Assembly: GCA_963555755.3 (NCBI GenBank)
Contig: OY820905.2
Span: 4,032,001 to 4,096,000, forward strand
DNA: 64,000 bases
Reading direction: 5' to 3'
From: Nitrospirales bacterium
Lineage (GTDB): Bacteria; Nitrospirota; Nitrospiria; Nitrospirales; UBA8639
Of the stretch, positions 6,244 to 61,060 are shown piece after piece (the first letter of the stretch is position 1; the number at the start of each line of letters is the position of its first letter). The notes under the pieces were generated by a model, which did no database searches, was not told where the DNA came from, and saw nothing but the letters and a program-made list of their open reading frames with translations. Made by a program: the position numbers and the translations under genes.

Positions 6244-6540
6244 TACGTATATTAACCTAGTAGGCCATTTCCAAAAAATAGCAAGTGTCATACAAGGGGT
6301 CCGGCCTTTGACCCTTCAACGAACGAATTGTGGGATCGACTTTTTGCAGGAGCAAATTTTCGTGGGTTATTTGAACGATCAGGCGGCGTGCGACGAGGTG
6401 TTAAATAGGTGTTAGAAATACAGACATACTGGTGGGAATTGAGGCAGAGAGAGGCAAAGTGAGGCAAAGAGGCAATCTACGAATAGGAAGGCGGGGAGAG
6501 GGAATTGCCCGTCTTTACTAGCGTTGAGCAATTCCCCCTC
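6244..6540 (+). repeat. att-adjacent arm region of an integrative element (inverted homologue at 60766-61060)
   Basis: AGGTGTTA x2 and GAGGCA(A/G) x4 direct repeats; colinear with the reverse complement of 60766-61060. Confidence 0.8.
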
Positions 6541-6546
6541 ATCTTA

Positions 6547-6591
6547 TTCGTAAACCGTAGGTCGGTGGTTCAACCCCACTCGCCGGCTCCA
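6547..6591 (+). tRNA. tRNA-Thr(CGT) 3' half only (att site), not a functional gene
   Basis: TTCGTAA loop, ACCGT, AGGTC, GGTGG-TTCAACC-CCACT T-arm, CGCCGGCT-CCA; no D-arm or 5' acceptor strand upstream. Confidence 0.8.
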
Positions 6592-6973
6592 TTTTATTCT
6601 TGATCAAGTTCTCGTGTACCTATCAGAGGTTCTCATCCTGGCGTTCCCTGTATTTTCCCATTTCGGAATTGATGCCGAATCTATCGCCTCAATTCATCTA
6701 ACATATTGAAATTAATGGTTTTTTCTAGCGTGTGGTCACGCGTCTGAGTTGTTGTTTACGTAAAAGAATTCTCAATTCTTGGGCCAATTTGTCTCGGTTC
6801 TGGCCAGAAAAGGCAGGTTGGTGTTCATTAGGATTAAGTCTTGACGGAAAGGAACCGATATCAATAATAGAGAGTAATGAACAGTACTGAAGGGTAACGA
6901 GGAGAAATTTGGTCCGTATTGAAGAGGTATGTAAGAGGCTACGAGTACGCTGCGGGGGTAAGGAAATAACCGA

Positions 6974-8668
6974 ATGACTGTTCTCGCTCCAACAACAGAG
7001 GTCATGAGTGTTCCAGGAAACGAAGTCCTTTTAGACCGGCTGCCTCTCGGAGTCTGTCTTTTGCGACAGGACTGGACGGTTGTCTTTTGGAATCGATGTC
7101 TTGAAAGTTGGAGTGGTCTCCCTCGAACCAGCATTGTGGGGCAATCCTTATTGGCCATGTTTCCCTTTCTCGTCCTCACGGAATATGAAAAATATCTTCA
7201 AAAGATTTTTGATGGAGGGGAGGCTACCGTCCTTTCATCAGCAGAGCATGGTCCCGTGTTTAGGTTTGGGCCGGGCCGGAGGGAGAACCGATTTCAGCAT
7301 GTGCACATCACGGGTGTTCCGTCTGATGAAATCGATGGTGTGTATGCCATGATTTCCGTTGAAGATGTCACGGATATGTGGCTTCAGGTGAAAGGGTATC
7401 AAGCGTCGGAGGCGCAGGCCAAACAGGACCTGAGTGATCGGCGAATGGCTGAAGCGGCACTGACTCGCTTAGGTCGGTTTCATGAATTGATTCTTCAATC
7501 CGCGGGAAATGGAATCTTTGGGCTCGATCGTGACGGAAATACCTTATTTGCGAATCCGGCCGCTGCCAATATGTTAGGCTGGGATATTGAGGATATCGTT
7601 GGCGAATGCATGCATACTATTCTTGGTCACCATTGTCCTTTAGAACATGGGAATGATGGCGATGGCTGTTTTCTCTCGGCCCCCCTTGAGGAAGGCCGGT
7701 ACCAGCTTGTAACCGAAGACTGGTTTCAGAAAAAAGATGGCACACGTTTTCCCGTGGAATATCTTGGCGCCCCTATCGTGGAGGGGGGAGAAATCGTGGG
7801 GGCTGTCGTGACCTTCAGCGATATTTCCTGCCGCCGAATTTTGGAGCAAAAAGTATTGCGGTATACGATGCAGCTCGAAGAAGAGGTCGACTTGAGAACC
7901 AGTCGCATTCGAGAACTGGAACAGCGTCGTATGGAAGTGGAGAAGTTGGCGGCGTTAGCGCAAATGGCGGCCGGTGTGGCCCACGAAATTAATAACCCGC
8001 TTGCCGGGATCAAAAACGCGTTCCATCTGGTAAAAGGCGCTATTCCAAAAACCCATCCGCGTGTCAGTTACGTCGGTAAGATCGAGAACGAGATTGATCG
8101 TATTTCCGGAATCATCAAGCGGATGTATCAACTCTATCAGCCTGATCCTGCGGTGTTGCGTGCCGTGAATCTCACGGAAATGTTGCAGGATGTGTCGTTA
8201 ATGGTAGAACCCGTCTTGAAGCATCACGACATCACATTGGAGATTTTGACACCGCCCTCCCTGCCGCTCATGCGGTTACCCGTTCGAGATATTACCCAGG
8301 TACTCTGTAATCTTGTGCAAAATGCGGTTCAGGCTTCTTTCGGGAAGCAGGCCATTCGTCTTGCGGTTGAAACGGATAATCAGTGGATTCGGATTGCGGT
8401 CAGTGATCAGGCTGGAGGGATATCGGACGATATTCTCCCCCATATCTTTGAACCATTTTTTACGACGAAATCAGGTAGTGGGCAAGGAGGAATGGGGTTG
8501 GGGCTGTCCGTGTCACGAAGTTTGATTGAAGCGTTGGGCGGTCGAATAGAAGTGCGGACTATGGCGAAGGAGGGGAGTACCTTTATCGTGCACATACCCC
8601 ACGCGATGGAGGGGGGGGAAGATCCCAGTGAACAACTGAGAGTAACCAAGGAGGAGGTCCATGGGTAG
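6974..8668 (+). CDS. PAS-PAS sensor histidine kinase (NtrB-like)
   Basis: AHEINNPL H-box, NLVQNA, FEPFFTTK, GMGLGLS; two PAS domains. Confidence 0.92.
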   Translation: MTVLAPTTEVMSVPGNEVLLDRLPLGVCLLRQDWTVVFWNRCLESWSGLPRTSIVGQSLLAMFPFLVLTEYEKYLQKIFDGGEATVLSSAEHGPVFRFGPGRRENRFQHVHITGVPSDEIDGVYAMISVEDVTDMWLQVKGYQASEAQAKQDLSDRRMAEAALTRLGRFHELILQSAGNGIFGLDRDGNTLFANPAAANMLGWDIEDIVGECMHTILGHHCPLEHGNDGDGCFLSAPLEEGRYQLVTEDWFQKKDGTRFPVEYLGAPIVEGGEIVGAVVTFSDISCRRILEQKVLRYTMQLEEEVDLRTSRIRELEQRRMEVEKLAALAQMAAGVAHEINNPLAGIKNAFHLVKGAIPKTHPRVSYVGKIENEIDRISGIIKRMYQLYQPDPAVLRAVNLTEMLQDVSLMVEPVLKHHDITLEILTPPSLPLMRLPVRDITQVLCNLVQNAVQASFGKQAIRLAVETDNQWIRIAVSDQAGGISDDILPHIFEPFFTTKSGSGQGGMGLGLSVSRSLIEALGGRIEVRTMAKEGSTFIVHIPHAMEGGEDPSEQLRVTKEEVHG

Positions 8669-9437
8669 CGCCGCAAAAATTTTGCTGGCCGATGATGAGC
8701 AGACGTTTTTATATTCAACCGCAGATCTGTTACGAGATCAGGGGTATGAGTGTGATTGTGCGATGGACGCAGAAGAGGCGAATGCCCTGTTGCAACGGGC
8801 CGAATATGATTTGTTGATCAGTGATATCAATATGCCCGGCAATGGGCAATTGGAATTTCTGAACGCCGTCCATGGTGAACAGCAGGGGTTGCCGGTCATT
8901 ATGATTACGGGATACCCATCGGTTGAAACGGCCGTTCACTCCTTTCGATTGTCCGCGGTCGATTACCTGCAAAAACCGATCGATATTGACGAGTTACTCG
9001 GGTTAATCGATCCTGCCGTGCAGAAGGGACAATTGGCGCGGAGGGTTCGAAAAACAAAAGAAGAGATGCAAGGGCTGGTTGGCATTCTTGAAACACTGGA
9101 GAATGTTGGGGCGACCGGAAGAACCGGTTCCAGCCTAGATGATGGATCATTCGCGCTCAGTGCGTATCTTGATCAGGCTGTCAGTCATCTGGCCACGGTG
9201 TCCGTGGGATTAAAAGCTACCATCGATACGATCAAAAATTCTGGGGTGGGAGAAGAGACCGAATTGAACATCAGGGGGGTCTGTCCACGATGTCAGAGTT
9301 ACCGAGAGGTCCTGTATCATACGATCCAGGTGTTAATGAGGACCAAAGATGCCTTTAAGTCCAAGACTCTAGGTGAATTGCGCCGGCAAGTAGAAATCGT
9401 ATTAGAAGATCCTCAAACTCTGATGAAAAAGGCTTAA
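8661..9437 (+). CDS. Response regulator (REC plus unrecognised C-terminal domain)
   Basis: LLADDE, DINMPG, YLQKP; overlaps the kinase stop codon. Confidence 0.88.
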   Translation: MGSAAKILLADDEQTFLYSTADLLRDQGYECDCAMDAEEANALLQRAEYDLLISDINMPGNGQLEFLNAVHGEQQGLPVIMITGYPSVETAVHSFRLSAVDYLQKPIDIDELLGLIDPAVQKGQLARRVRKTKEEMQGLVGILETLENVGATGRTGSSLDDGSFALSAYLDQAVSHLATVSVGLKATIDTIKNSGVGEETELNIRGVCPRCQSYREVLYHTIQVLMRTKDAFKSKTLGELRRQVEIVLEDPQTLMKKA

Positions 9438-9784
9438 GTTTTCCTGGGCAAGACCGAAAAGAGTAAACAGAGGGAAACGGAGACGATAGATCATCTGATG
9501 TGCCTAACGAATGGCTTTAGGTCGGAAGTTGAGGCGCTACAACTGGGCTTCCAGCCAAGCAAACAGGGGAATTGGACCTGTTGGTTGATGGCATGAGGGA
9601 AGGCCTTTCACAATACTGGTGAAGGTCTTGCGTTGTGCTTTTTTTTTGCAAGGCGCAAAGCAGGAACGGCGAGGAGACTGAGACCGTGAATCCACGCACT
9701 GGACAGGACAAAGCGAGTGCAGGCCGATCCCTCATACTCTAGTCTGACCTTCTCCGGGTTTTCTTGTTAGGAAAGGAGACTCCC

Positions 9785-9973
9785 ATGTTTAACGAAGGAA
9801 TTCTCACCATCTCCGATGTGGCCAGCTTTTTAAAGATCCCCAAATCATCGGTGTATAAACTCATCCATGACGGTGGGTTGCCTGCCCATAAAGTTGGGAA
9901 GCATTTTCGAATGGTGCAGGGTGAGGTCAAGGAATGGCTGTATCAGGGCGGACTGAGCGCGCCCAAACTCTAA
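9785..9973 (+). CDS. HTH_17 excisionase-like DNA-binding protein
   Basis: ILTISDVASFLKIPKSSVYKL...LPAHKVGKHFR; AAGGAG SD. Confidence 0.85.
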   Translation: MFNEGILTISDVASFLKIPKSSVYKLIHDGGLPAHKVGKHFRMVQGEVKEWLYQGGLSAPKL

Positions 9974-10143
9974 GTCCATGACTCGTGGAATGTCGAGCCT
10001 CGTGAAAAGCTCGCCCGCCTACCTAATGGTAGGGGGGCACCGAGTCGCTGTGTGAGGCTGCCTGTTCCCCGAGGGAGGGATACCACACATGTCCATGACT
10101 GGGTAGTTTTTTTTCGAGAGGACGTTTCTCGTCTTTTCTAGCT

Positions 10144-13100: not shown

Positions 13101-13200
13101 CGAGCCTCTTCTCGTAGCGTTTCAAAAAGAATGTCGTCGGGCTCGCCGGGCACTTGCACAACGTATCGGCACTCAATCCGTTGGCTCTGGGGGCTGTTGA
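10144..13200 (+). CDS. Hybrid sensor kinase PAS-GAF-HisKA-HATPase-REC-REC-Hpt
   Basis: [24 protein letters not shown], two receiver domains, AHSLKGSS Hpt motif. Confidence 0.95.
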
Positions 13201-13355
13201 AAAAGCATGCCCTGAGTCTTTCCGAAGGGTCCCAGCGGCGTTCTCGGCCCTTGGTCGTGCTCACGTACTATGAGTACGCTCCGCGCGCCAAAGTGCCTGC
13301 GGCCTTTCCTTCGACAAGCTCAGGACAGGACTGGACGGGCCTTTTTGAACAGCCC
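13191..13355 (+). mobile_element. MITE family A
   Basis: GGGCTGTTGAAAAAG...CTTTTTGAACAGCCC IRs; related to 33822-33942 and 41536-41725; may extend to ~13406. Confidence 0.75.
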
Positions 13356-13463
13356 CTTTCCCTACCTTTCGATTTTCCAACTTATCATTCCATCTTCTCA
13401 ACCGGCACTCCCTGTGTTATACACACCTCCAGATTGTAGCGCGGACCTTTTGGCCTTGGTTCA

Positions 13464-13894: not shown

Positions 13895-13929
13895 TCAAGC
13901 CCACTGTTGACTCCTCAACGTTTTCTCCT

Positions 13930-15685: not shown

Positions 15686-15774
15686 ACTCTCTTGTTCTTC
15701 CGCCATCAGCAACAAGAACGGAAGTTAATTGAAAAAGCTAAAGAATGAAGGATGTTCAGGGAGTGTCCTGCCTC

Positions 15775-21157: not shown

Positions 21158-21158
21158 G

Positions 21159-24163: not shown

Positions 24164-24169
24164 CCATCC

Positions 24170-44695: not shown

Positions 44696-44878
44696 CAGGT
44701 TCTTTCGCGGCGACCTCATGGTTCGTGCCTCCTTCCTGTGTGTGAGGGGTTCCTCCGCGCCATCATTTTTCGAGCGATCACTGTCCTGTTTCATACATGG
44801 CTTATACGTTCGTTCGTGGTGAGCATGTCGAACCATGAATAGATCCTATCGGAATATCTCACCCTATGATTCAAAACA

Positions 44879-46315: not shown

Positions 46316-46392
46316 AAGGAAAAGAAAGGAATAGAATAGAAGCATTCCCGCAACTCATTGGGTTTTATTGTCCATAGTTAACCCTCACAGAT

Positions 46393-48156: not shown

Positions 48157-48240
48157 TTTAACCTCACCGTGTAGGCGCTGATGAAGCAATTAATCAAAGG
48201 CCCCGTAGCAAGCTGTCGTGGTATCCGAAAAGGATGTATA

Positions 48241-48381
48241 GGGCACCTCTAAAAACCGTCCTTTTCCGTGATGGCGGCGTCAGCCGCGTGCTCAAATCCT
48301 CATGTATTCGCCCATACACTCCGGTTTTCCGCGCGCGGCTTCCTTGCCCTCACAAAAAATGCCTGGTTTTTAGAGGTGCCC
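48241..48381 (+). mobile_element. MITE family E (141 bp), copy 1
   Basis: 16-bp IR GGGCACCTCTAAAAAC; TA on both flanks. Confidence 0.9.
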
Positions 48382-48652
48382 TATATGTAAATGCCACAGC
48401 AAGCCACGGGGAATTTAACCCATTTGTGGGATTAATCTGGAATTTTTTATGGACATTAGTAATCGCCAATATTCACCCTGATTGGGTAAACCATATTGTG
48501 AGATCAAAATTTCTTTTTGAATTTAGCTCCTATTATAACATTCATTCAGCCTGCTTTGGTATCACCCCTTCCGTTGCACTAGCGAGTTGAATCTAAGCAT
48601 TATTTTTATCTGAAGGTTATTCATGTGAAGGCCTGTAAAAGGTATTGTATTG

Positions 48653-48774
48653 TTCTTCGAGAGTGACGAGGTCTTTGGGGTCGAGAGGGAAGGCCATGAT
48701 GGCGGAAGGAAACTGTATTTTGGTATGATTGCAAAACAAAGGAAAAGCCCCACCGTCGTAACGATGAGGTTCTC
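48653..48774 (-). repeat. Terminator plus MA.PLDP..LVTLEE gene-start fragment
   Basis: Homologous to ~63143-63260. Confidence 0.75.
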
Positions 48775-48923
48775 ACATGTAATGCTTGTATCGACAACTC
48801 GTTTACGCCAACACACAGAGCCAAAACACCACCGTAGTTTCTTAAACCCTGTGTCCAAATTGTTCTGACGACATACAGCATCGAAATTTTTTTGAAAAAA
48901 CAGGCGAATAATAAAGGTGTAGT

Positions 48924-50981
48924 ATGAAAATTTTTTACACTCTCTCGCTTGTACTTCTATTGTATGTAACCAACTCGCCAGCTCTGGCGGTACATGAATG
49001 CGGTGAACTTATGGGGAGCTGCCTCCCTCAGATGGTATTGTCCTCTGAGCCACAACCTCTGGTAATGGTCGAGGCTGCGCCTGAACCCGCAGAGCCAGTG
49101 AACCCCTGGAATCCGCCGCCGGATGAATACGATCCTACCGAACAGGATGAATTAAATTATTCCGAAGCTCCGTTTAACCCGATTGATAAAGCGCTTGAAG
49201 AGGCTGATGCCGCTCAATTCTCAGGGAGGTATGCCGACGCATTGGAAATACTGACACCGCTGGCGGAGCAGGGAAATCCCATTGCTCAAGAGAACCTGGC
49301 GCGCATGTATCTCAACGGTCGCGGTGTTCCACAAAACGACAGTGAAGCGGCTCGGTGGATGCGGAAGGCTGCCGATCAAGGCTTCGCACAAGCCCAATAC
49401 CTCCTCGGGGCCCTGTATGACGACGGCCGGGGCGTGCCGCAAAGCAAATCCGAATCGCTCAAATGGATGAGACGGGCTGCGGAACAAGACCATCCGGCGG
49501 CGCAATATGACCTTGCCGTCTCATACTCTCTGGGCAAGGGCCTTCCGGTGGATTGGGAGCGTGCCGCCCATTGGTTGCGCAAGGCGGCCGAGCGCGGCCA
49601 CGGCCCGGCCCAATATTATATCGGCATCTTCTACCAAGACGGAAAAGGTGTTGAGAAAGATCTGGTCGAGGCCATCAAATGGTTTCGGGTCGCCGCCGAG
49701 AAAGGTCTTGCCCCCGCACAATTGCAACTTGGCTTAGCGCTACGCGAGCGGGCAAATTTCGCCCAGTCCGTGAAGCGAATGCTTGGGCTCAATGCCTCCC
49801 AATATAACTTAAGGGCCCTTGGATCACTTGCTCCTCCAAACGAGGCGGCGGCGGCTACCATTGAAGCCATGATCTGGCTCAAAGTAGCGGCACGTGCCGG
49901 CGAGGCTAGGGCCTATTGGGCGCTCGGTACCATTTATGGCGATTCTCCTGATGTCGCGATGGATTTCACGGAAGCGTATGTCTGGCTCACCCGCGCATGG
50001 GAGGTTTCAAAGGATTCCACGAACCGCGGCAATATCGAAGGCTTGTTGAAGTTAATCCTTGACCATCGGATGAAGCCGTGGCACATCGCCATGGCGGAGT
50101 CGCAGGCAAGACAGCTTGGGGTCAAGGCGCTTTACCCGCAAACTCAGGTCAACGTTGTGATCGACAGGACTCATCCTGATCCCGATCAACTATTCTCTTT
50201 GCGAATTGCCGATAGCCCTGGAACGACGTACCGTGTTTGGGGAACGTCAGACCTGTTCGCTGTATTGAAGGAGACCAAGCCCGATGCGTTCATGCAGGGC
50301 GGAAGCGGTGTCATGTTCGAGATTGAGACCGAGGAGCCGCTGCCAAACGGCAATGTCAAACGCATCCAACAAGTGGTGGAGTGGCGTTGTGCCTCCGGGG
50401 TTGTCGCGCTGGGGCACGGGTTTGTCAGTAATGATTGCGATCAGGCCGGCCCCGGCAACAAGACCGACTGGTCGGGGGCCAGCCTCAATTTGGAATTGAC
50501 ACCCTTCGGGGAACTGGTTGACCTGTCTGCGGAGACCGGTAATTTGGCCGTCGAAGATTTAGTGGAGCAAAATTTCGAAGAATTGGTCGGCCGAGGAATT
50601 TCTTCGCCGTTCCTACCCAAGACAGCTATTTCCGTGGGTGAACGATGGGACGGTGGATCCGGATTCATTGATCTTGCGGGTTTTGGCAGGCTCACCTTTT
50701 CGCGCCAGCTTGAACTGACGCGGATATTGGAAGCAAGCGATGAGCAGTATGCTGAGATCACGTTGCGCGGCACTGAGGTCACTCTTGAATCTAAAGAAGA
50801 CCGTTCAGCTGAACTTCGGCTGAACCGCAGCGACGTCGTTGGTACGATTATTTTCTCTTTCACCAACCAACGAGTGGTCGCCCAGACCTTCCATTATCAA
50901 GCGGACTTTGACGGACAGGATCCCAAAAAAGGCGATGAGAAGATCAATCTTTCGATTCAATTTCGGGCAGCTGAAGAATAA
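48924..50981 (+). CDS. Exported SEL1-repeat protein with a beta-rich C-terminal domain
   Basis: Signal peptide, Pro-rich linker, about 6 SEL1 repeats. Confidence 0.85.
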   Translation: MKIFYTLSLVLLLYVTNSPALAVHECGELMGSCLPQMVLSSEPQPLVMVEAAPEPAEPVNPWNPPPDEYDPTEQDELNYSEAPFNPIDKALEEADAAQFSGRYADALEILTPLAEQGNPIAQENLARMYLNGRGVPQNDSEAARWMRKAADQGFAQAQYLLGALYDDGRGVPQSKSESLKWMRRAAEQDHPAAQYDLAVSYSLGKGLPVDWERAAHWLRKAAERGHGPAQYYIGIFYQDGKGVEKDLVEAIKWFRVAAEKGLAPAQLQLGLALRERANFAQSVKRMLGLNASQYNLRALGSLAPPNEAAAATIEAMIWLKVAARAGEARAYWALGTIYGDSPDVAMDFTEAYVWLTRAWEVSKDSTNRGNIEGLLKLILDHRMKPWHIAMAESQARQLGVKALYPQTQVNVVIDRTHPDPDQLFSLRIADSPGTTYRVWGTSDLFAVLKETKPDAFMQGGSGVMFEIETEEPLPNGNVKRIQQVVEWRCASGVVALGHGFVSNDCDQAGPGNKTDWSGASLNLELTPFGELVDLSAETGNLAVEDLVEQNFEELVGRGISSPFLPKTAISVGERWDGGSGFIDLAGFGRLTFSRQLELTRILEASDEQYAEITLRGTEVTLESKEDRSAELRLNRSDVVGTIIFSFTNQRVVAQTFHYQADFDGQDPKKGDEKINLSIQFRAAEE

Positions 50982-51062
50982 TCGGTATTACCCAGACAGA
51001 AGACAATTCCCTCTGAGCGATTCAACGGACCAGGGTACCCAATAGGGCAATAGAGTATCGAA

Positions 51063-52247
51063 ATGCAAGGTTGGATCATGCCACGTCATGCGAAGTTCGG
51101 TTTATCTCTCCTGCTGATAGTCGGGATTCTGATAGTTCTGGCCGGAGTCGCTGATGCCAAAAACTGTCCACCCAACTCCGAATCGGTTTCCTCCACGGAG
51201 ACCAGCGGCGGAACACTTGTCACCTGCCGATGTCATGACGGGTTTTGGGAAGTCGAAAAGGCCTGCGTCGCCCGGGACAGCGCCGACCTTCAGGTAGCGG
51301 CAGCAAAGGAATATCAACTTCTGGTGGATTCGATTCAGGGAAAAGCCCTGGACAATAAGGAAGCGATCCAAAACTACGTACTTGCCCAAAAGTGGCCGCC
51401 CCAGATCGCAACGATCGTTGTACTCACCACACTCGAAATGGCCTGGGGGCAATTCGACCGAGCCAGTTGGTATCTCGGCGTTGTTAGCCGCTTCGTTGAG
51501 GATGACGTCCTCAATGCCTATGCCCAGTTGGTTGACGATCGCAGACGCACCTTTGTCATTCGCGATCGCATCGGCCCGTTTGTGCGTGAGCGTGTTGACC
51601 CCAATCTGATCAGCCACCTGAAGGTGGCGGCGCAACGCAAAATTATTCAGGCGTCAATCCGGCGAGGCCAAGGCGACTATGATACCGCCATCACACTTTA
51701 TGAAGAAGCCGTCAAGAACCTTGGTCGATCTGAAGAATTCAAAATTCAGAGCGAAATCAGAGACGCGATAGTTTGGACCAGTCAGCTCAGAGCTGCCAGA
51801 GACGAGCGGATTAACCCTGGCGCCCGCGCCGAATTTTATCGCCAAGCCAGGGAAACAGCAGCTGCCCGACGCGCATGGAGCCTTGCAGGAGCCCTTGCTG
51901 AAGCGGAGCAGAAGAATGCATCGCTTACGATGTATAAAGAGGCTCGTGATTTATTTTCCACGGCTGACACACGGATGGTGCCGGTCATCGAAAAACAAAT
52001 GAAATCGGTTGCCGAGGATCGGTTCGAACACCTTCCCCCTGACCTGGAAGGATTGTTCAAACACCAGTATCGTTGGGTGCCGACTAAGTCGATCCGTGCC
52101 ACGATCGTTCTTGATGCCCTGGAATATGCCAAAGGCGACTGGCAAGGCAGTCTTCAGTATGTCGGCCTGTCCCTCAAGGCCGATCCGGGCAATGCCAATC
52201 TTCGCGAAGCCCGCGCCTATCTCGAGGGCTTAAGCGCGGGACGTTAA
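51063..52247 (+). CDS. Exported TPR-like protein with a Cys-rich (EGF-like) N-terminus
   Basis: CPPNS...CRCHDGF...CV, followed by helical repeats. Confidence 0.7.
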   Translation: MQGWIMPRHAKFGLSLLLIVGILIVLAGVADAKNCPPNSESVSSTETSGGTLVTCRCHDGFWEVEKACVARDSADLQVAAAKEYQLLVDSIQGKALDNKEAIQNYVLAQKWPPQIATIVVLTTLEMAWGQFDRASWYLGVVSRFVEDDVLNAYAQLVDDRRRTFVIRDRIGPFVRERVDPNLISHLKVAAQRKIIQASIRRGQGDYDTAITLYEEAVKNLGRSEEFKIQSEIRDAIVWTSQLRAARDERINPGARAEFYRQARETAAARRAWSLAGALAEAEQKNASLTMYKEARDLFSTADTRMVPVIEKQMKSVAEDRFEHLPPDLEGLFKHQYRWVPTKSIRATIVLDALEYAKGDWQGSLQYVGLSLKADPGNANLREARAYLEGLSAGR

Positions 52248-52281
52248 TCTTCCTGGTGCTGTGCAATGGAGAGGACACCGA

Positions 52282-55200
52282 ATGAAGCGGCTGAGCTGGC
52301 ATCCGATTATTGCGCTGCTCGTCTCTGTGGTAATAGGCCTTGCCGTCAGCAATCATAGCATCGCCAAGGAAGGAAAGCTGAATGTCGAGACCCCTCGGGA
52401 TACAGTCGATCAGGAATTCAATCGCCGGCAGGAAATGCTTAATGGCCAGATTGAATCGTTTGGCAACTTAGCCGAGCTTTTGCGCGGGAAGTTGTCCGGG
52501 CGGAGCAAAAATGACGGGGATGGTAACAATACCGGCGGTGGCGATAACACCTTTATAATCCTCATCAAAAAAGAGGAAAAGGAAGATGAATCGTCTAAGC
52601 CCGAGAGGTCGACGACAGAGTCAAAGCCCGCCCAGGAAACGCCGCCGTCCATTAGTCTGACTCCCACCCAGGCGACTGCAATCGAGAAAGTATTGGCGGA
52701 GAACAAGTTTAAGATCGAGGCCTATGCCATGGCCAGCCGACAAGCTGGCCAGTCCATGATCGAAGCCAGGCAGGTCGAAGCCACAAACCCCGCCTATGCC
52801 CGCCGGCTCCGGCAAATCGCCCGGCGTAAGCTTGATGATGCCCTGGGATTCGTTGAGGATCTGTCCAACACAATCGCCTCCGCCGTCGATCCAAGTGGCG
52901 CACCGCCCCCGTCGCCACGCCTCATTGGCGATCAGGTCAATCCGGACAAGTTCTGCGGTATAGCATGTGAACAGCTCAAGCGGATTGCGGCCCCCGCAGG
53001 GGGAGCCGGTCTGCCGCGGTTTGACACGACCGCGCCGCGCTCGTCCGAGGACAAAAAGCTCCAACCGATCGATCAAAGGCTGTTCAAAGGAATGGGACCA
53101 CGCTCGCCACCACCCCTGTCGGGGCGGGGTCCAAGCGCCGCCCCCGTCTTAAATGATAGCCCAGTGCCCCTCGACGGGCTCCGAGACGCAGTCGCCAATA
53201 CCGCCCCGCAACTGGCGGACATGGCTCTTTTTGTGCCATGTACCGACAATCGTCAAGCCTGCACGTCGCCGCAACTCCTGGAGTTGCTTGGCTCACCGGA
53301 AAAGCGACAGGCCTTGCGTGACGTTGGCGGTGTTGCGCTTGACGTCACGTTCGACCTGCTCGCCATGGCCGGTCTGGGTGAATTTGAGGGCGGTGGTGAC
53401 CTGTCCTTTGTCGGTCAACCGGTATTGGTTTCACTCAACCGCCTGCACGACCACGTGGCATCTTATGCCTCTCAACACCGGTGGTCCGAATTACCCGCTT
53501 CGTTGCGCTTCCCGGGCGGAATAGAGCGTTTGATCGGGTTTGTTCTGGACCCGGTCGGCAAGGACGTGGTCCTGGTTGGCCGCAAAGCCCAACGCCCGAG
53601 TCATGCCCTCGACATCGATATGATCGTCCTCGCAATCCGCCAAGCGTGGAAAAAGGGGTGGCTCATGGGGGTTTCTCTTGATCCGCTTCCGGATGATATC
53701 GCCGGACCGCAATATCCGAGGGTGATTAATGTACCGGCCGACTCGATCGCCGCCCGGGTGATGCTCGACGCCGATTACGCGATGAAGCTCATTATGTTTA
53801 ATGCCGGTTTTGCGCGTGGGGAAAATCTGATCGACCTTGAGGCCGCTTACGGCCGTTCCGTGGAAGGCGGCCTTGCCCGGTTTTGGCTTGCCCCCCGGCC
53901 GTTGGGCCCCGGCTCAACCCGGCTTTCCGCATCGCGCCGGACCATGCTGCTCGTTACGGGTGTTGAGGTCCGAACCGAAGAGCAATTGGTTGCAAACGGA
54001 ACCAAGCTGGGAACAGGGCACCGGTCTCAGTGGGCCTTGCACGTCGCCGATGCATTCAACGACGCCTATCCGGCAATCGAACTGGCGAGACACGTCGAAC
54101 CGAAAGGCGTTTTTGTTCGCCTGCACGGCTTGATTGATCTTGTCACCTTCGCAAAGATCTGGCGTATCAATGGGCTTGATTATCCCGTCTTGAACAAGAT
54201 CGCCGTCCTGCCCTATCGCCGTCTTACCGGCAAAGACGCGATCCCATCCTTTTATCCGGGCGTCCACTCCGTCATACCGGTCAGCGGCGTGGAGGGCGTC
54301 CTTATCGGCGGTGTGGATCTCAGTCTCCGATGGCGCGGTGGCATGGGATCGCGCCATGCCGATCACGTCATGGCGATGCTGGAACGCGCCGTCGACGAAT
54401 ACCGGACCCAGATGGACATATTCCATCAAGTCGCCATTCCCGTCGCGGTCCCTCGTATCTTTGACGATCATGAAACAGAGGTCGACAGGAAGTTATTGAC
54501 GGCGGGACGATTGTTGGCCCAAAACAAATTCGATCGGGCGACGAAAGGGTTGATCGATCTCGTACAACAGGAACCGCTGGTGGCCGAGGCCTGGTCCATG
54601 CTGGCGACAGCCTATCTCCACAATAAAAAGTTCGAACGGGCGGCAAGTGCCGTGTTGCATGCCATCGAGCTTAATCCAGGTGATGAGCACTTGCGCCTCT
54701 TGGCCAAAGACATCTTGTGGTCGACCAACGCGCGAACCGCTTATGCCACATTCAGCCCTGACGAGCGGAGGCAAATGAGTGCCCATTATGCCGCCTTGGC
54801 ACGCTCCGAACTCCTCCGTAAGCGGAATGTCAGGGGGAAACAATTTGCCGAATGGGCGGTTCAGCTGTCAGGCGAGAACGGTGATGCCCACCTGCTGCTG
54901 GCCTTTGCGCGGGCTTCTACGGATCAGAAAACCGGTCGCCGGGATATGGTTCGCGCTATCCGTGCCTACCGTCGGCAGCATGCCGCCGGTATTCCCAATG
55001 CCGGCAGAAAATTGTCCATTGCCCTTTCGATCAGTGCTGCACAGCGCGTGGAAAGGGCGTTTGAGAAGCTTTTTGATCGCTTAGGTGGTTGGCGGGGGGA
55101 AGCAGAGGTCGATGTCGGTCCGATAGTTTACGACCTCGATGCCGCTCACAAGGAAGCGCGTGAGGCCGGCGAGCTCGATCCGGATCAACCTCTCGCCATG

Positions 55201-55581
55201 TCCATTGAACCCCTTGCCATGGCGCTTTCGGCCACAGTGGCCCCGGACAAGCCGTCCGCCGTCAAGCACGCTATTCAGCAAATAAAAAAAGTGAGGGCAA
55301 GGTTCCCGGACAATCCGATCCCGTTCGAAATCAGTGGGCGAATTTACATGATTGCCGAAAACTGGCCAAGTGCCCTCGCCGATCTTGAGCGATCGATTGA
55401 ACTCGCCCCAAGCCGGGGCCAGCCCTATGCCATCCGCGCAATCGCTTTTGCCCAAACGGGACGCTGCACTGATGCGAGAGGAGATATACAGAGAGCCCGC
55501 AATTTGGCAGGCGGACAGTTCACAATCCCTGCCGCCGTTGAACAATTCATCGCCGATTGCCGGCAACGTCCACTGGGATGA
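52282..55581 (+). CDS. Large exported DUF1598-like plus TPR protein
   Basis: GVSLDP, MLDADYAMK, RFWL and GGVDL motifs; C-terminal TPRs. Confidence 0.65.
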   Translation: MKRLSWHPIIALLVSVVIGLAVSNHSIAKEGKLNVETPRDTVDQEFNRRQEMLNGQIESFGNLAELLRGKLSGRSKNDGDGNNTGGGDNTFIILIKKEEKEDESSKPERSTTESKPAQETPPSISLTPTQATAIEKVLAENKFKIEAYAMASRQAGQSMIEARQVEATNPAYARRLRQIARRKLDDALGFVEDLSNTIASAVDPSGAPPPSPRLIGDQVNPDKFCGIACEQLKRIAAPAGGAGLPRFDTTAPRSSEDKKLQPIDQRLFKGMGPRSPPPLSGRGPSAAPVLNDSPVPLDGLRDAVANTAPQLADMALFVPCTDNRQACTSPQLLELLGSPEKRQALRDVGGVALDVTFDLLAMAGLGEFEGGGDLSFVGQPVLVSLNRLHDHVASYASQHRWSELPASLRFPGGIERLIGFVLDPVGKDVVLVGRKAQRPSHALDIDMIVLAIRQAWKKGWLMGVSLDPLPDDIAGPQYPRVINVPADSIAARVMLDADYAMKLIMFNAGFARGENLIDLEAAYGRSVEGGLARFWLAPRPLGPGSTRLSASRRTMLLVTGVEVRTEEQLVANGTKLGTGHRSQWALHVADAFNDAYPAIELARHVEPKGVFVRLHGLIDLVTFAKIWRINGLDYPVLNKIAVLPYRRLTGKDAIPSFYPGVHSVIPVSGVEGVLIGGVDLSLRWRGGMGSRHADHVMAMLERAVDEYRTQMDIFHQVAIPVAVPRIFDDHETEVDRKLLTAGRLLAQNKFDRATKGLIDLVQQEPLVAEAWSMLATAYLHNKKFERAASAVLHAIELNPGDEHLRLLAKDILWSTNARTAYATFSPDERRQMSAHYAALARSELLRKRNVRGKQFAEWAVQLSGENGDAHLLLAFARASTDQKTGRRDMVRAIRAYRRQHAAGIPNAGRKLSIALSISAAQRVERAFEKLFDRLGGWRGEAEVDVGPIVYDLDAAHKEAREAGELDPDQPLAMSIEPLAMALSATVAPDKPSAVKHAIQQIKKVRARFPDNPIPFEISGRIYMIAENWPSALADLERSIELAPSRGQPYAIRAIAFAQTGRCTDARGDIQRARNLAGGQFTIPAAVEQFIADCRQRPLG

Positions 55582-55638
55582 TAATGTGGTGGTGGAACAG
55601 TTGTGGCGTAATGTTAAGAACTTAGTCAGCTCACACAA

Positions 55639-55779
55639 GGGCACCTCTAAACACCGTCCTTTTCCGTGATGGCGGCGTCAGCCGCGTGCTCACATCCTCA
55701 TGTATTCGCCCATACACTCCGGTTTTCCGCGCGCGGCTTCCTTGCCCTCACAAAAAATGCCTGGTTTTTAGAGGTGCCC
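55639..55779 (+). mobile_element. MITE family E, copy 2
   Basis: Near-identical to 48241-48381. Confidence 0.9.
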
Positions 55780-55785
55780 ACAATA

Positions 55786-57069
55786 TTATTGATTCAATTG
55801 AATACTCTGAAATATCGTTTGAAGGTCGGCATTATCTTGTTGTGGATAGTACGTATCTAAATCATAGATGATTGTAATATCAATCGTATGATTATTTTTC
55901 ATGAAAGAAAAAATATCTGAGCGGGTTCGATACGTATCTCCCTCAAGAACCAATTGCGTATCGTACGTAACATGCGCGCCAGAGGTTCCGTTCACGTTAG
56001 TTGCTTCAACAGCCTCCACAATGTCCACGTAGGTCATTTGTGACACAAAGTACATATAGGCTCTGAGATGATGAAGCACGGATTCAGGAGGACTTTTTAC
56101 TTTTGCTAAATTTCTCGTCGTGATTTGAACGGCTGGTAAGGGGGTGCCTGGGGAATGCATTCTGATCAAGATAGATTTTTCACTGCCAGCCTTAGCTATT
56201 TCCGTCACCACGTCTTTGGGAACCCCCAGCGCTTTACTGGTAATATCTCGAGCCGTATCGTAGGCCTTTTCAATAACTGTTCCTGACGTTTCATATTCCC
56301 ATCCATCAGGAATCTCAATTTGAATACCCAATTCTTCGTGGACATAAATTTTGGTGTGAACGTTAGAGGAGAGGACAGCAGAATCTTCGCTCTGGGCTAA
56401 CGATAACTCTGCAGGTGTTAAGATCATGCCCAGATCTGTTCTGGCGGCCATGGCGATTGGCAGTCCCTGATCAGCTGCCTTGCTGATCCACCTGTACGCT
56501 TCGACGGTGCTTTGCCCGGTGCCTTCACCTTTGACGTACATCATACCAACATTGAATTGGGCCTGACTGATACCCTGTTCCGCTGCCTGTTTAAACCATG
56601 AAAATGCTTGGCCATGGTCAACGGCAACGCCCTGACCCTTATCAAAAACAAGACCCATATTGAATTGTGCATGAGCATTGCCCTGGTTGGCCGCACGTGT
56701 GAACCACTGAATGGCTTGAGCATCATCTTGCTCTACGCCAAGCCCTTGAGCATAGAGGATGCCGGCTCCCTGTTGGGCGCTGCTGTGTCCCTGCTCAGCT
56801 GCCTGTACATACCGTTTTAAGGCTTCAGCATAATCCTGTTGTACGTCTTCTCCACGGAAATATAAATCGGCAAGACTGTATTGGGCCTCCACGTGCCCCT
56901 GATCTGCGGCTATGGTCAACCAGTGGATGGCATCAGCCATGTTGTTACTCAACTGATAACCAACACCAGCTGAATAAGCCTCCTCAGGCGTGAGTTGTTC
57001 AGCATAAATGGGGCTAAAGGAAAATAGGGTGATGGCTATTGAAATGAATCCAAGAAATTTCTTAAACAT
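55786..57069 (-). CDS. Exported SEL1-repeat protein with a PsbP-like C-terminal region
   Basis: Signal peptide, about 5 SEL1 repeats, GIQIEIPDGW. Confidence 0.85.
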   Translation of the reverse strand: MFKKFLGFISIAITLFSFSPIYAEQLTPEEAYSAGVGYQLSNNMADAIHWLTIAADQGHVEAQYSLADLYFRGEDVQQDYAEALKRYVQAAEQGHSSAQQGAGILYAQGLGVEQDDAQAIQWFTRAANQGNAHAQFNMGLVFDKGQGVAVDHGQAFSWFKQAAEQGISQAQFNVGMMYVKGEGTGQSTVEAYRWISKAADQGLPIAMAARTDLGMILTPAELSLAQSEDSAVLSSNVHTKIYVHEELGIQIEIPDGWEYETSGTVIEKAYDTARDITSKALGVPKDVVTEIAKAGSEKSILIRMHSPGTPLPAVQITTRNLAKVKSPPESVLHHLRAYMYFVSQMTYVDIVEAVEATNVNGTSGAHVTYDTQLVLEGDTYRTRSDIFSFMKNNHTIDITIIYDLDTYYPQQDNADLQTIFQSIQLNQ

Positions 57070-57241
57070 TGGTTGGCTCCTCTTTATCATTTTCAATGAT
57101 TCGATGGAGTGTCCAGCATGCACCCGGCTTGGGTCAAAACCTGTTGTGGGGCCTGTTTCAGGCTCCTAGACAACGACGTGCTTGCCATCGGCAATCAATT
57201 GCTCGGCGACGGGGAGCCCATGAAGCCGGCACCTCCATTAT

Positions 57242-58522
57242 TCAGGACTTGCACGCGGTGGCCTCGTGTAGCGCAGCTTCCGCGACCGCCGTACGCCCCT
57301 TCCCTCGTGCCGCTTGTGCAACGATTTGCAGGTAGCGCGGTACAACGACGCTCTCGGTCCAATGACGCTCAAACCCCGCTCGGGCACGAGCCGATGCCTG
57401 CTGTCGCCAATCGGAATCGTTCGTAATCATACGGAGCATCGCCATGAGTTCGTCGGTAGTCTCGAACAGCACACCGCCACCGTAGGCGTCGACAACCTCC
57501 GGGAACGGCCCTAGTCGCCGAGCGACTACCGGCGTGCCCATCCGGAATGCCTCGATCAAGGTGATACCGAACGTTTCGAAACCTACCGACGGCGCTATCA
57601 GCGCGAGTGCGTGGCGGTAGTAGCGCGACAACTGATCCGGAGGCATATGTCCCAGGAAGTGCACAGCATTAATTCCACTAGATAGTTTGCGCAGCTGGCT
57701 TTCGTAGTCACCGTCGCCAGCGATCAGCAGGTCGGCGTCATGAAAACGAGCGAAGACCGGAATGACGTCATCAAGGCCCTTGATGACCTCGAGTCTGCCT
57801 GCGAACAGGAAGTACGGACGATCATGTGGCGACCGCTCCGCTTGCGTCACCACGCTTGAGGACGGTTCATCGTCTGGCAGAAAGTACGGCACCACCTCCA
57901 TCTCTCTTTGAAAGCCGAACTCACGGTGTTTGGCACGGCTGAACTCACTCTTGGCGATGAACACATCGATATGTCGAAGCTGCCTCTCGAGGTAACCGAA
58001 GTAGCGCCAGAGTTGAGGTGGTCGCTGGTGGTGCAAGACGCATCGCAGACATTGCCGTTGCGAGCACGGTTCGCGATTGTGGCGCCACAACACATGAGAT
58101 GGACACACCAGCCAATGCTCGTGGGCCTCGAAGATATTGATGGCGTCGCTGAGGCCTAGCAGGCCAGGACCGCCGATCAAGGACACATTGTGAAAATTTA
58201 CGACGTCGAAGCGTCGATTCCCAATCAGCTCGCGCAGACGGCGGCCTTGAAAAATCGGTCTTCCGGTTTGTTGCGTGAGCAGAACCGAAAGCCGCTTCAT
58301 GCAGCTGCTCAGGTGAACAACATTGACACCGTCGTTCTCGCACACAACCGTCTCCGGTGCATTTCCATTTAAGACCGTGTAGGCATCGGTGTCCTGAACG
58401 ACCGTCACCTCATGGCCGCGACCAACCAGCGCACGCGCGAGTGTCTGCACACCAATGCCGTCGCCACCGAAGTTGTACGGCGGGTAAAAGGTGGTCAGCA
58501 TGCAAAAGCGTAAGCCAGTCAT
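57242..58522 (-). CDS. Glycosyltransferase family 4
   Basis: FYPPYNFGG, FAGRLEVIKG, ETFGITLIEA. Confidence 0.92.
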   Translation of the reverse strand: MTGLRFCMLTTFYPPYNFGGDGIGVQTLARALVGRGHEVTVVQDTDAYTVLNGNAPETVVCENDGVNVVHLSSCMKRLSVLLTQQTGRPIFQGRRLRELIGNRRFDVVNFHNVSLIGGPGLLGLSDAINIFEAHEHWLVCPSHVLWRHNREPCSQRQCLRCVLHHQRPPQLWRYFGYLERQLRHIDVFIAKSEFSRAKHREFGFQREMEVVPYFLPDDEPSSSVVTQAERSPHDRPYFLFAGRLEVIKGLDDVIPVFARFHDADLLIAGDGDYESQLRKLSSGINAVHFLGHMPPDQLSRYYRHALALIAPSVGFETFGITLIEAFRMGTPVVARRLGPFPEVVDAYGGGVLFETTDELMAMLRMITNDSDWRQQASARARAGFERHWTESVVVPRYLQIVAQAARGKGRTAVAEAALHEATACKS

Positions 58523-58540
58523 TGGTTTATGTACCGGGGA

Positions 58541-59902
58541 TTACGTCCTAGCGAGGACTCCCATCCGCAGGCCGTGCCGTGGGCGCAAAATGACTTCGGG
58601 CTGCGGCCGTACGTCTTGGTCTGGAACCAGCTCTAGTCTGAATTTCTGAGTAACGAGAGCCAGGATTACTGCGGTTTCCCACTTGGCCATGTACTGGCCG
58701 ATGCAGGCATGGCTACCAACCCCGAACGGCAGATAGGCCATCCGTGGTCGTCCGGCCGCTTGATCCTGGGCGAAGCGCAGGGGATTGAAACGTTGAGGGT
58801 CGGGATGAAACCGCGGATCGCGATGGAGGATATACGGGCACACATACAGCTTTGCGCCAGCACTTATACGCGTACCCGATGGTAGGAGGTCGGCGGCGCG
58901 CGCCATGCGAACGAACAACCAGGTTGGCGGATACAGTCGCATCGATTCAGCTACGACCATCGAGGTGAACTCCAAACCTTCTACCACGCCTGTGGCCGCC
59001 GGGGTTCTGCATACTGTTTCGCGTTGCCAGCGGTCTACCTCCGAATAGAGACGTTGCGCTACTTGCTCGTGGCACGACAGCAAGAAAAAACTCCACGCCA
59101 ACGCCACCCCGACCGTCTCGTAACCGGCGGAGAATAATGTGATCACTTCGTCGATGATCTCTCGGTCGGTGAGCCCCGTACCATTGTCGTCAAAACGCGC
59201 AGCAGCCAGCATCACTAGCATATCGTCCTGCGATGCGCCGGCATTGCGGCGCGAGGCGAGTGCGTGCGAGACCGCTTCATCGATGGTGCGTGCGGCCTCT
59301 CTATAGTGGCGCGTTGCCGCAGTTGGTAAGTGCTCAGGCCACGGAAGGAGCGAACCATAAACGTACTCCGTATAGGTTCTGAGGTCGGCGATTGCACGAT
59401 CAATCCGGTCGTCCTCATCGCAAAAATCTCGTCCGAAGACCGTCGATGCGATCGCACGACGCGTCAGCGTCATCATCTCCCCGTACACGTCAACTTCTCC
59501 TCCGTCGTGCCAGGTCCCGAGCATCCGTCGTGTTTGCCTCGTGACGACGTCAGGAAACATCTCGCTGAGCGCGCGTCGGTAGATAGGCTGAAGCAAGCGC
59601 CTAAGGCGGGCATGACGTTCGCCAGTACTGGTGAGGAGGCCATTACCATGCAGTCGCCGTCCTCGCTCACTTGTTAGTCTGCGAGTCTTCTCGTAGTTGG
59701 AATCGTTGCGGACCAAGACGTGATAGAGGTCATCGGGGTGACGAAGAAGCCACACTGGACCGCCGATGTTTAGTTCGACCACATCGCGATCGAGCTGTGC
59801 ACATCGCTCGAGGAACCCCAGCTTGTCGCGTAGAAACCAGACCGCATGACCAAGCAGCGGAAGAGGGCGTGGTGGGGAGTCTAGTATGCGCTCCAAGTTC
59901 AT
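58541..59902 (-). CDS. Cytochrome P450
   Basis: AGYETV I-helix, ESMRLYPP, FGVGSHACIG heme-Cys. Confidence 0.95.
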   Translation of the reverse strand: MNLERILDSPPRPLPLLGHAVWFLRDKLGFLERCAQLDRDVVELNIGGPVWLLRHPDDLYHVLVRNDSNYEKTRRLTSERGRRLHGNGLLTSTGERHARLRRLLQPIYRRALSEMFPDVVTRQTRRMLGTWHDGGEVDVYGEMMTLTRRAIASTVFGRDFCDEDDRIDRAIADLRTYTEYVYGSLLPWPEHLPTAATRHYREAARTIDEAVSHALASRRNAGASQDDMLVMLAAARFDDNGTGLTDREIIDEVITLFSAGYETVGVALAWSFFLLSCHEQVAQRLYSEVDRWQRETVCRTPAATGVVEGLEFTSMVVAESMRLYPPTWLFVRMARAADLLPSGTRISAGAKLYVCPYILHRDPRFHPDPQRFNPLRFAQDQAAGRPRMAYLPFGVGSHACIGQYMAKWETAVILALVTQKFRLELVPDQDVRPQPEVILRPRHGLRMGVLART

Positions 59903-60247
59903 TTCATTGAGCAGACGCGCAGCGGAAGCCTCGACGTGGAGGGAAAGGAGAAGCACATGCCCTTCTTGGGCCAACCGAAAAGTACTGAAGAGGCAACACG
60001 TTGTCAATTACAAATTGGGGAGGTTTCGGCGGCAGGGCTTTTGTGGTGTGAGCACTTCTCAATATTTAGGGTATAGGTGCAGACAAACGAAAGGCCCACG
60101 CGGTTACCAGCCGTTGAGCCTTCCCAAAAAGGGGAGCTGACACAATCTTTCACTAGGTTTAGTGTCTCACGAATCAGGCGGTTCGTCTATTCCTTAAACG
60201 AGGGGTCAACGTGTGATCTACACACACTTCATCATCTGAGTAATGTA

Positions 60248-60388
60248 GGGCACCTCTAAAAACCGTCCTTTTCCGTGATGGCGGCGTCAGCCGCGTGCTC
60301 ACATCCTCATGTATTCGCCCATACACTCCGGTTTTCCGCGCGCGGCTTCCTTGCCCTCACAAAAAATGCCTGGTTTTTAGAGGTGCCC
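60248..60388 (+). mobile_element. MITE family E, copy 3
   Basis: Near-identical to the other two copies. Confidence 0.9.
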
Positions 60389-60528
60389 TGTAGTCTACCC
60401 GCTTTCAATAACTCACCTGTCACCCCACCTGAATCACCGTCAGTCAATTTAACAGTATGGAGAAGTGGCTCGAGCCACCATGGATAAGCGCGATATTAAA
60501 TAATCGATACACGCGTCACACAAACAGC

Positions 60529-60558
60529 AAGCCTCACCGTTTCGGCGGTGGGGCTTTT
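60529..60558 (+). terminator. Orphan terminator, same family as 2222-2255
   Basis: AAGCCTCACCG-TTTCGG-CGGTGGGGCTTTT. Confidence 0.65.
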
Positions 60559-60740
60559 GGTTGTTTCTTAAGACCACCAAGGGTGAGTTTGGGGAATCAA
60601 GGCGGGTGTCCCCTAACGGGACTATTTAAAACGACAGCCCCCCCAGATGAGGTGATGAGGCGTGAACCCTGCATGAATGAGGGGTGGGAGAGGAAATCGT
60701 CAAGCCTGATAAGCACTTGAACGATTCCCTCATAAAGAGC

Positions 60741-60759
60741 TGGTGCCGAAGGCGGGATT
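60741..60759 (-). tRNA. tRNA-Leu-like 3'-terminal fragment (att site)
   Basis: AATCCCGCCTTCGGCACCA on the minus strand; rest of the tRNA absent; abuts the arm region. Confidence 0.7.
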
Positions 60760-60765
60760 GTCCTA

Positions 60766-61060
60766 GAGGGGGTTGCTCAAGTCGTTGATAACTTGGGCAA
60801 TCCTCCCTCCTAGCGGGCCTTTACGCAGTTTGCCTCTTTGCCTGACTTTGCCTCTCTCTGCCTCAATTCCCACCCGTTTGTCTGTATTTTTAACACCTAT
60901 GTAACACCTGGCCGCACACCCGTTTTTCGATCACATAACCCACGAAATTCGCGCCCCACAAAAGTCGATCCCCACAATTGTTCCGTTGGAGTGCCAATCG
61001 CCGGAACCCTCGTAGCACACTTGCTATTTTTTCAAAAACAAGTATAGGTAAATATACGTA
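60766..61060 (-). repeat. att-adjacent arm region (inverted homologue of 6244-6540)
   Basis: Same AGGTGTTA x2 and (G/C)AGGCA repeats. Confidence 0.8.

Follow-up and report, generated by a model that had tools for sequence, protein, structure and literature searches.

The stretch of DNA analysed here (the window) comprises 64,000 nucleotides from a Nitrospirales bacterium (assembly GCA_963555755.3, contig OY820905.2, positions 4,032,001 to 4,096,000; G000:C1:4032001-4096000, where G000 is the genome studied and other G numbers denote related genomes). It carries two inverted copies of a region of about 295 bp, each abutting a displaced fragment of a tRNA gene, and our subject is the pair of genomic islands that end there and the tyrosine integrases associated with them. 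By BLAST, window positions 6244-6510 match 61060-60795 with 79% identity over 268 bp (221 bits, against a top score of 27.4 bits among 20 base-shuffled windows), and the longest perfect match between the copies is 30 bp. The motif AGGTGTTA occurs twice in each copy, at 6396 and 6407 on the left and at 60909 and 60898 on the right, and GAGGCA is found four times in the left copy and three times, with one further variant, in the right. A preliminary description, made from the sequence alone, had picked out inverted homologues with a doubled AGGTGTTA and GAGGCA-type repeats, which these scores and motif positions bear out. The region is not restricted to the window pair; G000 contains four full and six partial copies.

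On the left, the repeat joins the 3' half of a tRNA-Thr(CGT) gene (6547-6593, + strand), a 47-bp direct repeat of the full gene that begins exactly at the anticodon loop, and the first 7 bp of this fragment, the loop itself, would be the crossover overlap. The full tRNA-Thr(CGT) lies at G000:C1:4022109-4022183, and a tyrosine integrase gene (PF00589) terminates on its 3' side. Window positions 1-6593 (+) are the distal part of an island of 16.4 kb (G000:C1:4022139-4038593) whose attachment (att) end attL, tRNA and truncated integrase lie to the left of the window. In the congener G006 this site is empty, and the tRNA runs straight into the sequence found behind the Thr fragment of the window. 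The Thr integrase is reduced to 124 C-terminal residues adjoining an insertion sequence (IS)-like piece that is present elsewhere in the genome. On the right, the repeat joins 17 bp of the 3' end of tRNA-Leu(CAG) (60741-60757, - strand), beginning at the last T-loop base (a T/acceptor junction site), and relatives start identically. The full tRNA-Leu(CAG) is at G000:C1 c4108445-4108530, again with a PF00589 gene terminating on its 3' side; this integrase, located past the window end, is intact and has 368 amino acids. The two tRNAs point towards each other, which explains the inverted orientation of the repeat copies. Both full tRNA genes that had been predicted outside the window are therefore present, each with an integrase of one family (intact for Leu, a C-terminal remnant for Thr). 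The proposed tRNA joints also hold. The proposed endpoint of the homology does not: strong identity stops about 70 bp short of the crossover, which is reached by a weaker tail (58%) beyond the 268-bp match. We consider it probable that the window repeats mark the attR ends of two tRNA islands, now decayed, made by one lambda-type tyrosine integrase family, whose members have an arm region in common and are likely to exchange cassettes.

The repeat consists of blocks of unequal conservation. Identity between the window copies is 74% in the innermost block (Part 1), 94% in the arm block (79 columns), 58% in a spacer and 58% in the core-proximal block (49 columns). The arm block holds the tandem AGGTGTTA pair (6396-6414, +; 60891-60909, -). 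A GTGTTA pair is also located at attL, within the last codons of the integrase gene in G000 and in relatives, and again about 150 bp inside attR; its occurrence at both ends fits the expectation for arm-type sites, and the AGGTGTTA/GTGTTA pairs are likely the arm-type sites of the integrase. The GAGGCA repeats (left, 6441-6475, +, four spaced 10/10/8 bp; right, 60830-60864, -) are predicted binding sites of an HTH_17 excisionase. This assignment, and the role of a site resembling those of integration host factor (IHF), are suggested by spacing and by analogy with lambda-type systems (PMC2951348, PMC7736782). The left core-proximal block (6500-6546, +) contains a 9-bp inverted repeat, is 58% identical to the Leu copy and is 100% identical between Thr-CGT and Arg-CCT ends, and the right one (60758-60803, -) is 90% identical to Leu-class ends of G000 and G002, so that this block follows target class. 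Within the right copy, positions 60790-60778 match the IHF consensus exactly.

The arm block is found at five ends in G000, belonging to Thr-CGT, Leu-CAG, Gly-CCC, Leu-GAG and one orphan. The orphan attR (copy D; G000:C1:1488850-1489164, L009:17850-18164) has a core-proximal block identical to the Thr/Arg-CCT class and breaks off within the overlap into unrelated DNA, 230 kb from tRNA-Arg(CCT). It is possibly an off-target integration or a rearrangement scar; a partner end, as a secondary-site insertion would have, was searched for and not found.

Outside this genome, the arm block was detected in 29 of 301 genomes of the order, in a search that scored at most two candidates per genome. The 37 arm hits less one attL (L138) left 36 distinct ends, a sample that is neither independent nor random. 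In all 36 the spacing from arm to core is fixed at 133-137 nt. BLAST comparison with tRNAs placed 11 ends at a forward anticodon loop, 12 on the reverse strand and nine at a Leu 3' end, with three too degenerate to place and one orphan. Forward-loop targets are Thr-CGT, Thr-TGT, Gly-CCC, Arg-CCT, Lys-CTT and Leu-TAA, and reverse-strand targets, at 5' halves, are Arg-ACG, Arg-TCG, Arg-TCT, Pro and Leu-CAA. These 36 ends join about 14 tRNA classes, and about 16 are used in total, including Pro-GGG and Met/Ile-CAT (assigned by eye) and a reverse Gly-CCC. At the Leu ends, the last T-loop base is where identity sets in, including cases in which the preceding base differs from the tRNA. A tRNA, a family integrase or its remnant, and a family attR occur together at 13 of 23 examined loci. 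The idea that an element family moved to other tRNAs and another crossover sub-site with its arm sites retained is upheld by these 36 ends, far more widely than first guessed.

In the integrases, catalytic residues R208, K235, H298, R301, H324 and Y333 are invariant in 12 of 12 aligned sequences, and the top fold match is lambda Int (1z1b, E 1e-12, Foldseek). The predicted topology of the N-terminal domain (N-domain) fits three strands and a helix, with an extra beta-hairpin. In intact relatives the gene order is HTH_17 (excisionase-like), a small XRE/HTH_3 gene, integrase and attL, and the integrase is transcribed towards the tRNA, its gene ending at attL. Among named records, the nearest integrases belong to Nitrospira and Nitrospirales. 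The module is used by cargo islands, primase-bearing satellites, inovirus-like contigs and a terminase-bearing contig; a scan of IMG/VR with the single Leu integrase protein found nothing, but an alignment-based scan did find relatives.

Several observations concern these relatives. The inovirus-like contigs that carry a family integrase (L208, L209, L210 and L141) have a Zot-like morphogenesis gene. The IMG/VR sequence L207 (4785-6100) contains an integrase of the Leu clade followed by a 17-bp Leu 3' end without a full tRNA, an attP-like arrangement; its inner arm differs, and genes for terminase small subunits and for a tape measure are present. Cysteine-rich, zinc-finger-like insertions occur near the N-terminus of integrases in one Leu subclade and in the core-binding domain of the Pro/Gly clade (loci L132, L133, L134, L136 and L105, L107, L139, L158). 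Tc-toxin-like genes (Pfam TcA/TcB) are located in or beside family elements at L111:3100-18983 and L123:1-13920, in two Nitrospirales-type genomes.

The two islands had been described as siblings with shared cargo. The similarity of 4810-5002 to 63807-64000 is real, and is a fragment of a larger block of 566 bp with 96.5% identity, which occupies 4440-5005 (+) on the Thr side, has the same polarity inside each element and on the Leu side (63804-64000, -, within the window) runs on to G000:C1:4096369. The similarity of 6027-6068 (+) to 63016-63059 is also confirmed: these sequences lie outside the inverted pair as a direct repeat on the + strand, belong to a five-copy genomic repeat and have opposite polarity within the two elements. 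In addition, window positions 4925-5005 contain a sub-repeat of about 75 bp with approximately seven more copies, several in other islands. A recent move of one element from tRNA-Thr to tRNA-Leu (or the reverse) in this lineage, cargo included, would account for the arm block at 94% and for the 566-bp block. However, the islands have no more than these 566 bp in common besides IS and short repeats, their Part 1 copies are only 74% identical, and their integrases, about 40% identical where comparable, fall into separate, well-supported clades that span the order. The tree largely refutes such a recent switch, which we regard as very improbable, and the integrase identity makes the islands distant kin rather than sisters.

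A comparison of arm-binding with core-binding domains, as had been suggested, was made on 34 integrase proteins. Between clades (438 pairs) the N-domain is 60% identical, the core-binding domain 42% and the catalytic domain 46%; within clades (123 pairs) the values are 74%, 73% and 79%. The N-domain is thus the better kept between clades. In a tree of the core-binding and catalytic domains, the Leu clade (support 100/100) groups with a Thr/Pro/Gly/Arg clade, apart from Arg-reverse/Leu-TAA. It is nested among integrases that target anticodon loops: monophyly of the 12 loop-targeters was rejected by the approximately unbiased (AU) test (p-AU 0.0008, in an 18-row subset).

Several sequences appear mosaic. 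The Leu integrase of G005 is 92% identical to the Leu enzyme of G000 past residue 74, and its N-domain is nearest to an Arg(ACG)-reverse enzyme (81% versus 67%); the break falls at residue 72, in the domain linker (5/42 versus 367/398 informative bases). In G002, Leu and Arg(ACG)-reverse elements have 95 identical bases of xis, up to the contig end. The att DNA of the Leu end in the window also looks mosaic. Its arm block is 94-96% identical to co-resident Thr and Gly copies versus 82-87% to the Leu copies of congeners, whereas its core-proximal block is 80-90% identical to the Leu class versus 56-58% to others (against a Leu end of G002, 87% for the arm and 90% for the core-proximal block). 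Two metagenome loci (L304 and L324) combine a Thr-type core-proximal block, a Gly(CCC) loop and a Thr(CGT) 3' remainder, followed by attL-like sequence; this chimeric att has the look of a target switch caught midway or of a tandem junction.

An account without cassette exchange, in which purifying selection alone keeps arms and N-domain alike and vertically diverging core-binding domains reach new tRNAs through mutational drift, agrees with several of these data. The N-domain is conserved in all clades, nearest N-domain neighbours are mostly in the same target clade, the Thr-CGT and Arg-CCT integrases are 83% identical with loops that differ by one base, and rate differences alone can mislead the max-chi test. 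It is difficult to reconcile with the sharp linker break in the 92%-identical Leu pair, with the identical xis bases in Leu and Arg elements, or with arm blocks that are closer between Thr and Leu ends of G000 than between Leu ends of congeners, and we judge it improbable. From these sequence comparisons, the family likely changes target by cassette exchange between co-resident elements.

Two routes would then operate. For small steps among similar loops, such as those of Thr-CGT, Arg-CCT and Gly-CCC, a changed overlap would suffice. Between distant clades, cassettes would be exchanged via the conserved flanks of attP circles. In this scheme the integrase N-domain would bind the GTGTTA pairs, the excisionase the GAGGCA repeats, and IHF would bend the core-proximal DNA, while the core-binding and catalytic domains would select the tRNA. 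In the excised circle, these two domains, the core and the core-proximal 50 bp would form one target-determining block, flanked by conserved xis and N-domain sequence on one side and by the arm on the other, and homologous recombination in these flanks could swap the target and keep the arms.

A number of results weigh against the retargeting model or the assignments on which it draws. Fold matches of the N-domain are weak: Z is 4.4 for lambda Int (root-mean-square deviation 5.0, 55 residues aligned) and 4.0 for the arm domain of the high-pathogenicity island (HPI) integrase (deviation 1.6, 47 aligned), values in the range of chance folds, and searches of Pfam and PDB sequences gave nothing meaningful, no arm family included. 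The exact IHF consensus is present in just six of the 36 ends, a count without a shuffle baseline. The branch that carries the Leu clade is long, and the group submitted to the AU test was named after the first tree had been seen. The max-chi test calls too many mosaics: p reached 0.001-0.007 in a control triplet as well, although the shift there was far weaker, and its p value taken by itself is no proof of a mosaic. An arm from another genus (G018) is 92-94% identical to the window copies (94% to the Thr copy), which indicates that arm similarity does not simply track host. A cognate family integrase was not found for the Lys, Met/Ile, Leu(CAA), Pro(GGG) and forward Gly(CCC) ends, and the integrase presently at tRNA-Gly(CCC) of G000 is unrelated to the family. 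Finally, no excision (att-to-att) joint occurs among the public-run contig joints listed (15 of 44 and 15 of 37), the ends having been examined separately, although this is no proof of absence.

The inverted homology had also raised the possibility that the 54 kb between the copies could invert. The orientation of the copies speaks for a functional invertible switch of the intervening DNA, as do their 30-bp perfect match and the near-identical inverted block of 566 bp, which RecA might in principle use. Joining by an integrase, however, requires matching overlaps, and because the 7-bp overlaps differ, the integrase could not invert this interval. Both tRNA fragments have kept their direct orientation relative to the tRNA gene from which they derive. 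G003 is collinear with the interval from window 7.3 kb to the Leu flank, as are G002 and G006 around the Thr flank. The assembly and the congeners give no sign of inversion, and we attach next to no credence to a switch.

Part 1 has a different distribution from the arm block. It lies just inside attR (6244-6369, +; 60936-61060, -), is about 125 bp long and has nine copies in G000, some without a recognisable tRNA fragment alongside. Since it adjoins attR ends with four or more unrelated arm types, with sub-blocks shuffled among copies, Part 1 is independent of the integrase family and is not an arm, and the initial view of the whole 295 bp as one arm region must be narrowed accordingly. In other members of the integrase family its slot is occupied by motifs with runs of G and C. 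It is present in three of 115 genomes of the taxonomic family and in 26 of 27 metagenome pattern matches (L314, with unrelated flanks, was dropped). Its exact pattern has no match in IMG/VR, BLAST against 50,697 GenBank phage records found none, and comparison with plasmids gave only 22-nt chance matches. Three other arm families beside Part 1 each occur, by eye, with more than one tRNA (Arg-CCT/Thr-TGT at L005, L306 and L307; Arg-TCG/Arg-TCT at L007 and L303; Arg-ACG/Lys-like at L308 and L317).

The nine copies, some away from a recognisable tRNA fragment, would suit a dispersed repeat or structured RNA that accumulates in islands and to which the whole 295 bp might belong. In contrast, the distance between arm block and tRNA fragment is constant in 32 of 36 ends, and Part 1 was rejected as a structured RNA by the lack of an Rfam match and by the lack of compensatory change in all 15 predicted pairs (0/15); this explanation is highly unlikely. 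By eye, part of Part 1 resembles the cos ends of lambda. The G-run in this cos-like part consists of three Gs in five of 11 copies and four in six of 11, and its variable length counts against a working cohesive end. G000 has no large terminase of the lambda type, and no terminase neighbour or helper was found for Part 1. On sequence grounds Part 1 may be a mobilisation signal, for packaging or transfer, common to unrelated island types, a proposal in which our confidence falls a little short of even.

Taken together, the data may describe a natural system of modular retargeting, in which a constant chassis (excisionase, arm-binding domain and arm DNA) would carry swappable specificity cassettes for 16 or more tRNA sites, on either strand and in both crossover classes. 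The chassis would be common to islands, satellites, inoviruses and tailed phages of Nitrospirales, and the separate 125-bp signal would couple unrelated islands into one network of mobilisation and shuffling. We put forward this most comprehensive reading only tentatively, as one that is possible and still clearly doubtful.

Neither island of G000 has an excisionase gene, and Pfam searches of the Thr and Leu loci (L001, L002) found no replication (primase/helicase) or packaging gene. With only a truncated integrase at Thr and the excisionase lost from the Leu element, both islands are likely immobile. In G003, tRNA-Thr(CGT) (C1:3210681-3210842 versus 1593683) lies 1.6 Mb from the genes that flank the copy of G000, G002 and G006, a rearrangement break at the tRNA site. 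The Leu integrase is part of a block of 2,025 bp that is duplicated exactly (L002:7342-9366 and L002:15391-17415), together with the end of a PEP-CTERM gene and with a repeated element of about 150-200 bp at its borders; the second integrase copy has an altered C-terminus, and contig depth at the duplication is about twofold in runs X4 and X6. The Leu locus is stacked. A second Leu att, of 55 bp, of the anticodon-loop type and with another arm type, lies at G000:C1:4096878-4096824, and the sequence of about 85 bp behind the first att (60655-60740, -) recurs behind it; with the att counted in, identity is 92% over 104 bp. Outboard of the Leu attR, from approximately 44800 to 60740, is older accreted DNA with Sel1/TPR, glycosyltransferase and cytochrome P450 genes (Pfam), and in five of five congeners the matches to this part (44.8-60.7 kb) are dispersed repeats only. 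Cargo of the Leu island includes a haem peroxidase gene (61331-62983, +; PF03098, E 2.9e-159). Terminator-like hairpin repeats (2192-2250, 48737-48774, 60500-60558 and 63115-63178) follow PEP-CTERM and other cargo genes in several islands. Pfam matches to DruA occur in multi-copy, transposase-associated open reading frames (L002:11836-12960, L006:4639-5523, L011 and L013), which are apparently IS parts and not defence genes. The small contig G000:C2:1-14119 was considered as an excised element and set aside; it duplicates C1:4141231-4153174 at 99.98%, with an added IS, and was probably left over from assembly.

As regards the window, the outcome is modest: a pair of relics that are likely immobile. 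For the lineage, the family accounts for the accumulation and reshuffling of cargo at many tRNA islands. The retargeting of tyrosine integrases has so far mostly been deduced from trees or from the pair of phages lambda and HK022, and this family offers many natural targets on one arm and N-domain, visible mosaics and chimeric att, testable by swaps of domains and att. Should the cassette model be true, the family would supply a ready set of site-specific integrases that work with the same accessory parts and could place DNA at native tRNA genes.

By the features tested, the elements belong to the tRNA-targeting islands of lambda-type integrases. Lambda and HK022 have common arm sites and different cores. 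Catalytic residues and fold, direct-repeat arm sites on both sides of the core, and an HTH_17 gene for the recombination directionality factor (RDF) in intact relatives are all as in lambda-type systems. As in Int of lambda and HK022, there are three domains, the N-terminal one here predicted to bind arms, and related enzymes differ in core specificity (PMC7736782). That case, however, comprises two phages with 70% identity and targets other than tRNA genes; here there are dozens of enzymes with 35-50% identity and about 16 tRNA classes. The N-domain also differs, in its additional beta-hairpin and lack of a Pfam match, and the arm pair overlaps the last integrase codons. In KplE1, HK620 and Sf6 an integrase-RDF-att module with arm, RDF and IHF sites is likewise common to phages and islands at a tRNA gene, but that module has an integrase promoter that overlaps attL, and argW for its target, whereas here the gene ends at attL and targets vary (PMC2951348).

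Direct repeats of tRNA fragments (47 bp for Thr, 17 bp for Leu), PF00589 integrases and an empty Thr site also place these islands with those catalogued by Islander, which likewise consist of a full tRNA gene and a displaced fragment, and for which frequent switching of integrase targets is reported; the sub-sites named there are anticodon-loop (A), T-loop and T/acceptor junction (J) (PMC4383910). The Thr copy is of type A and the Leu copy fits J. In contrast to Islander, one arm architecture here spans A, J and 5'-fragment (reverse) sites, and the last type makes up 12 of 36 ends in our neither independent nor random sample versus 159 of 3919 islands there (PMC4383910). The sublocation rule of Williams 2002, as cited in bioRxiv 10.1101/2020.11.02.365908, similarly assigns different tRNA genes to one integrase subfamily and holds that a subfamily uses symmetric or asymmetric sub-sites exclusively; the citing work itself reports sub-site differences below the level of domain content. 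Our asymmetric Leu clade, with the same arms and N-domain, nests among loop-targeters and so appears to cross this boundary, although subfamily limits according to Williams may differ.

The tycheposons of Prochlorococcus likewise have an integrase lineage clustered by tRNA target, a mixture of cargo-bearing and satellite-like elements, and tandem accretion and decay in islands, but their integrases are described as facing inward, those here towards the tRNA (bioRxiv 10.1101/2020.12.28.424599). The present module is found also in inovirus-like and terminase-bearing elements. From phage satellites the Thr and Leu islands differ in having no replication or packaging gene, which some relatives with the same integrase module possess. 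In the open-access full-text literature we found no description of this integrase family, of arm-domain swapping between target classes, or of one arm chassis that covers several sub-sites and both strands. Target switching is already known, and what differs from known systems is its breadth on a single arm chassis, including both strands and an asymmetric site, together with mosaics that break at the domain linker.

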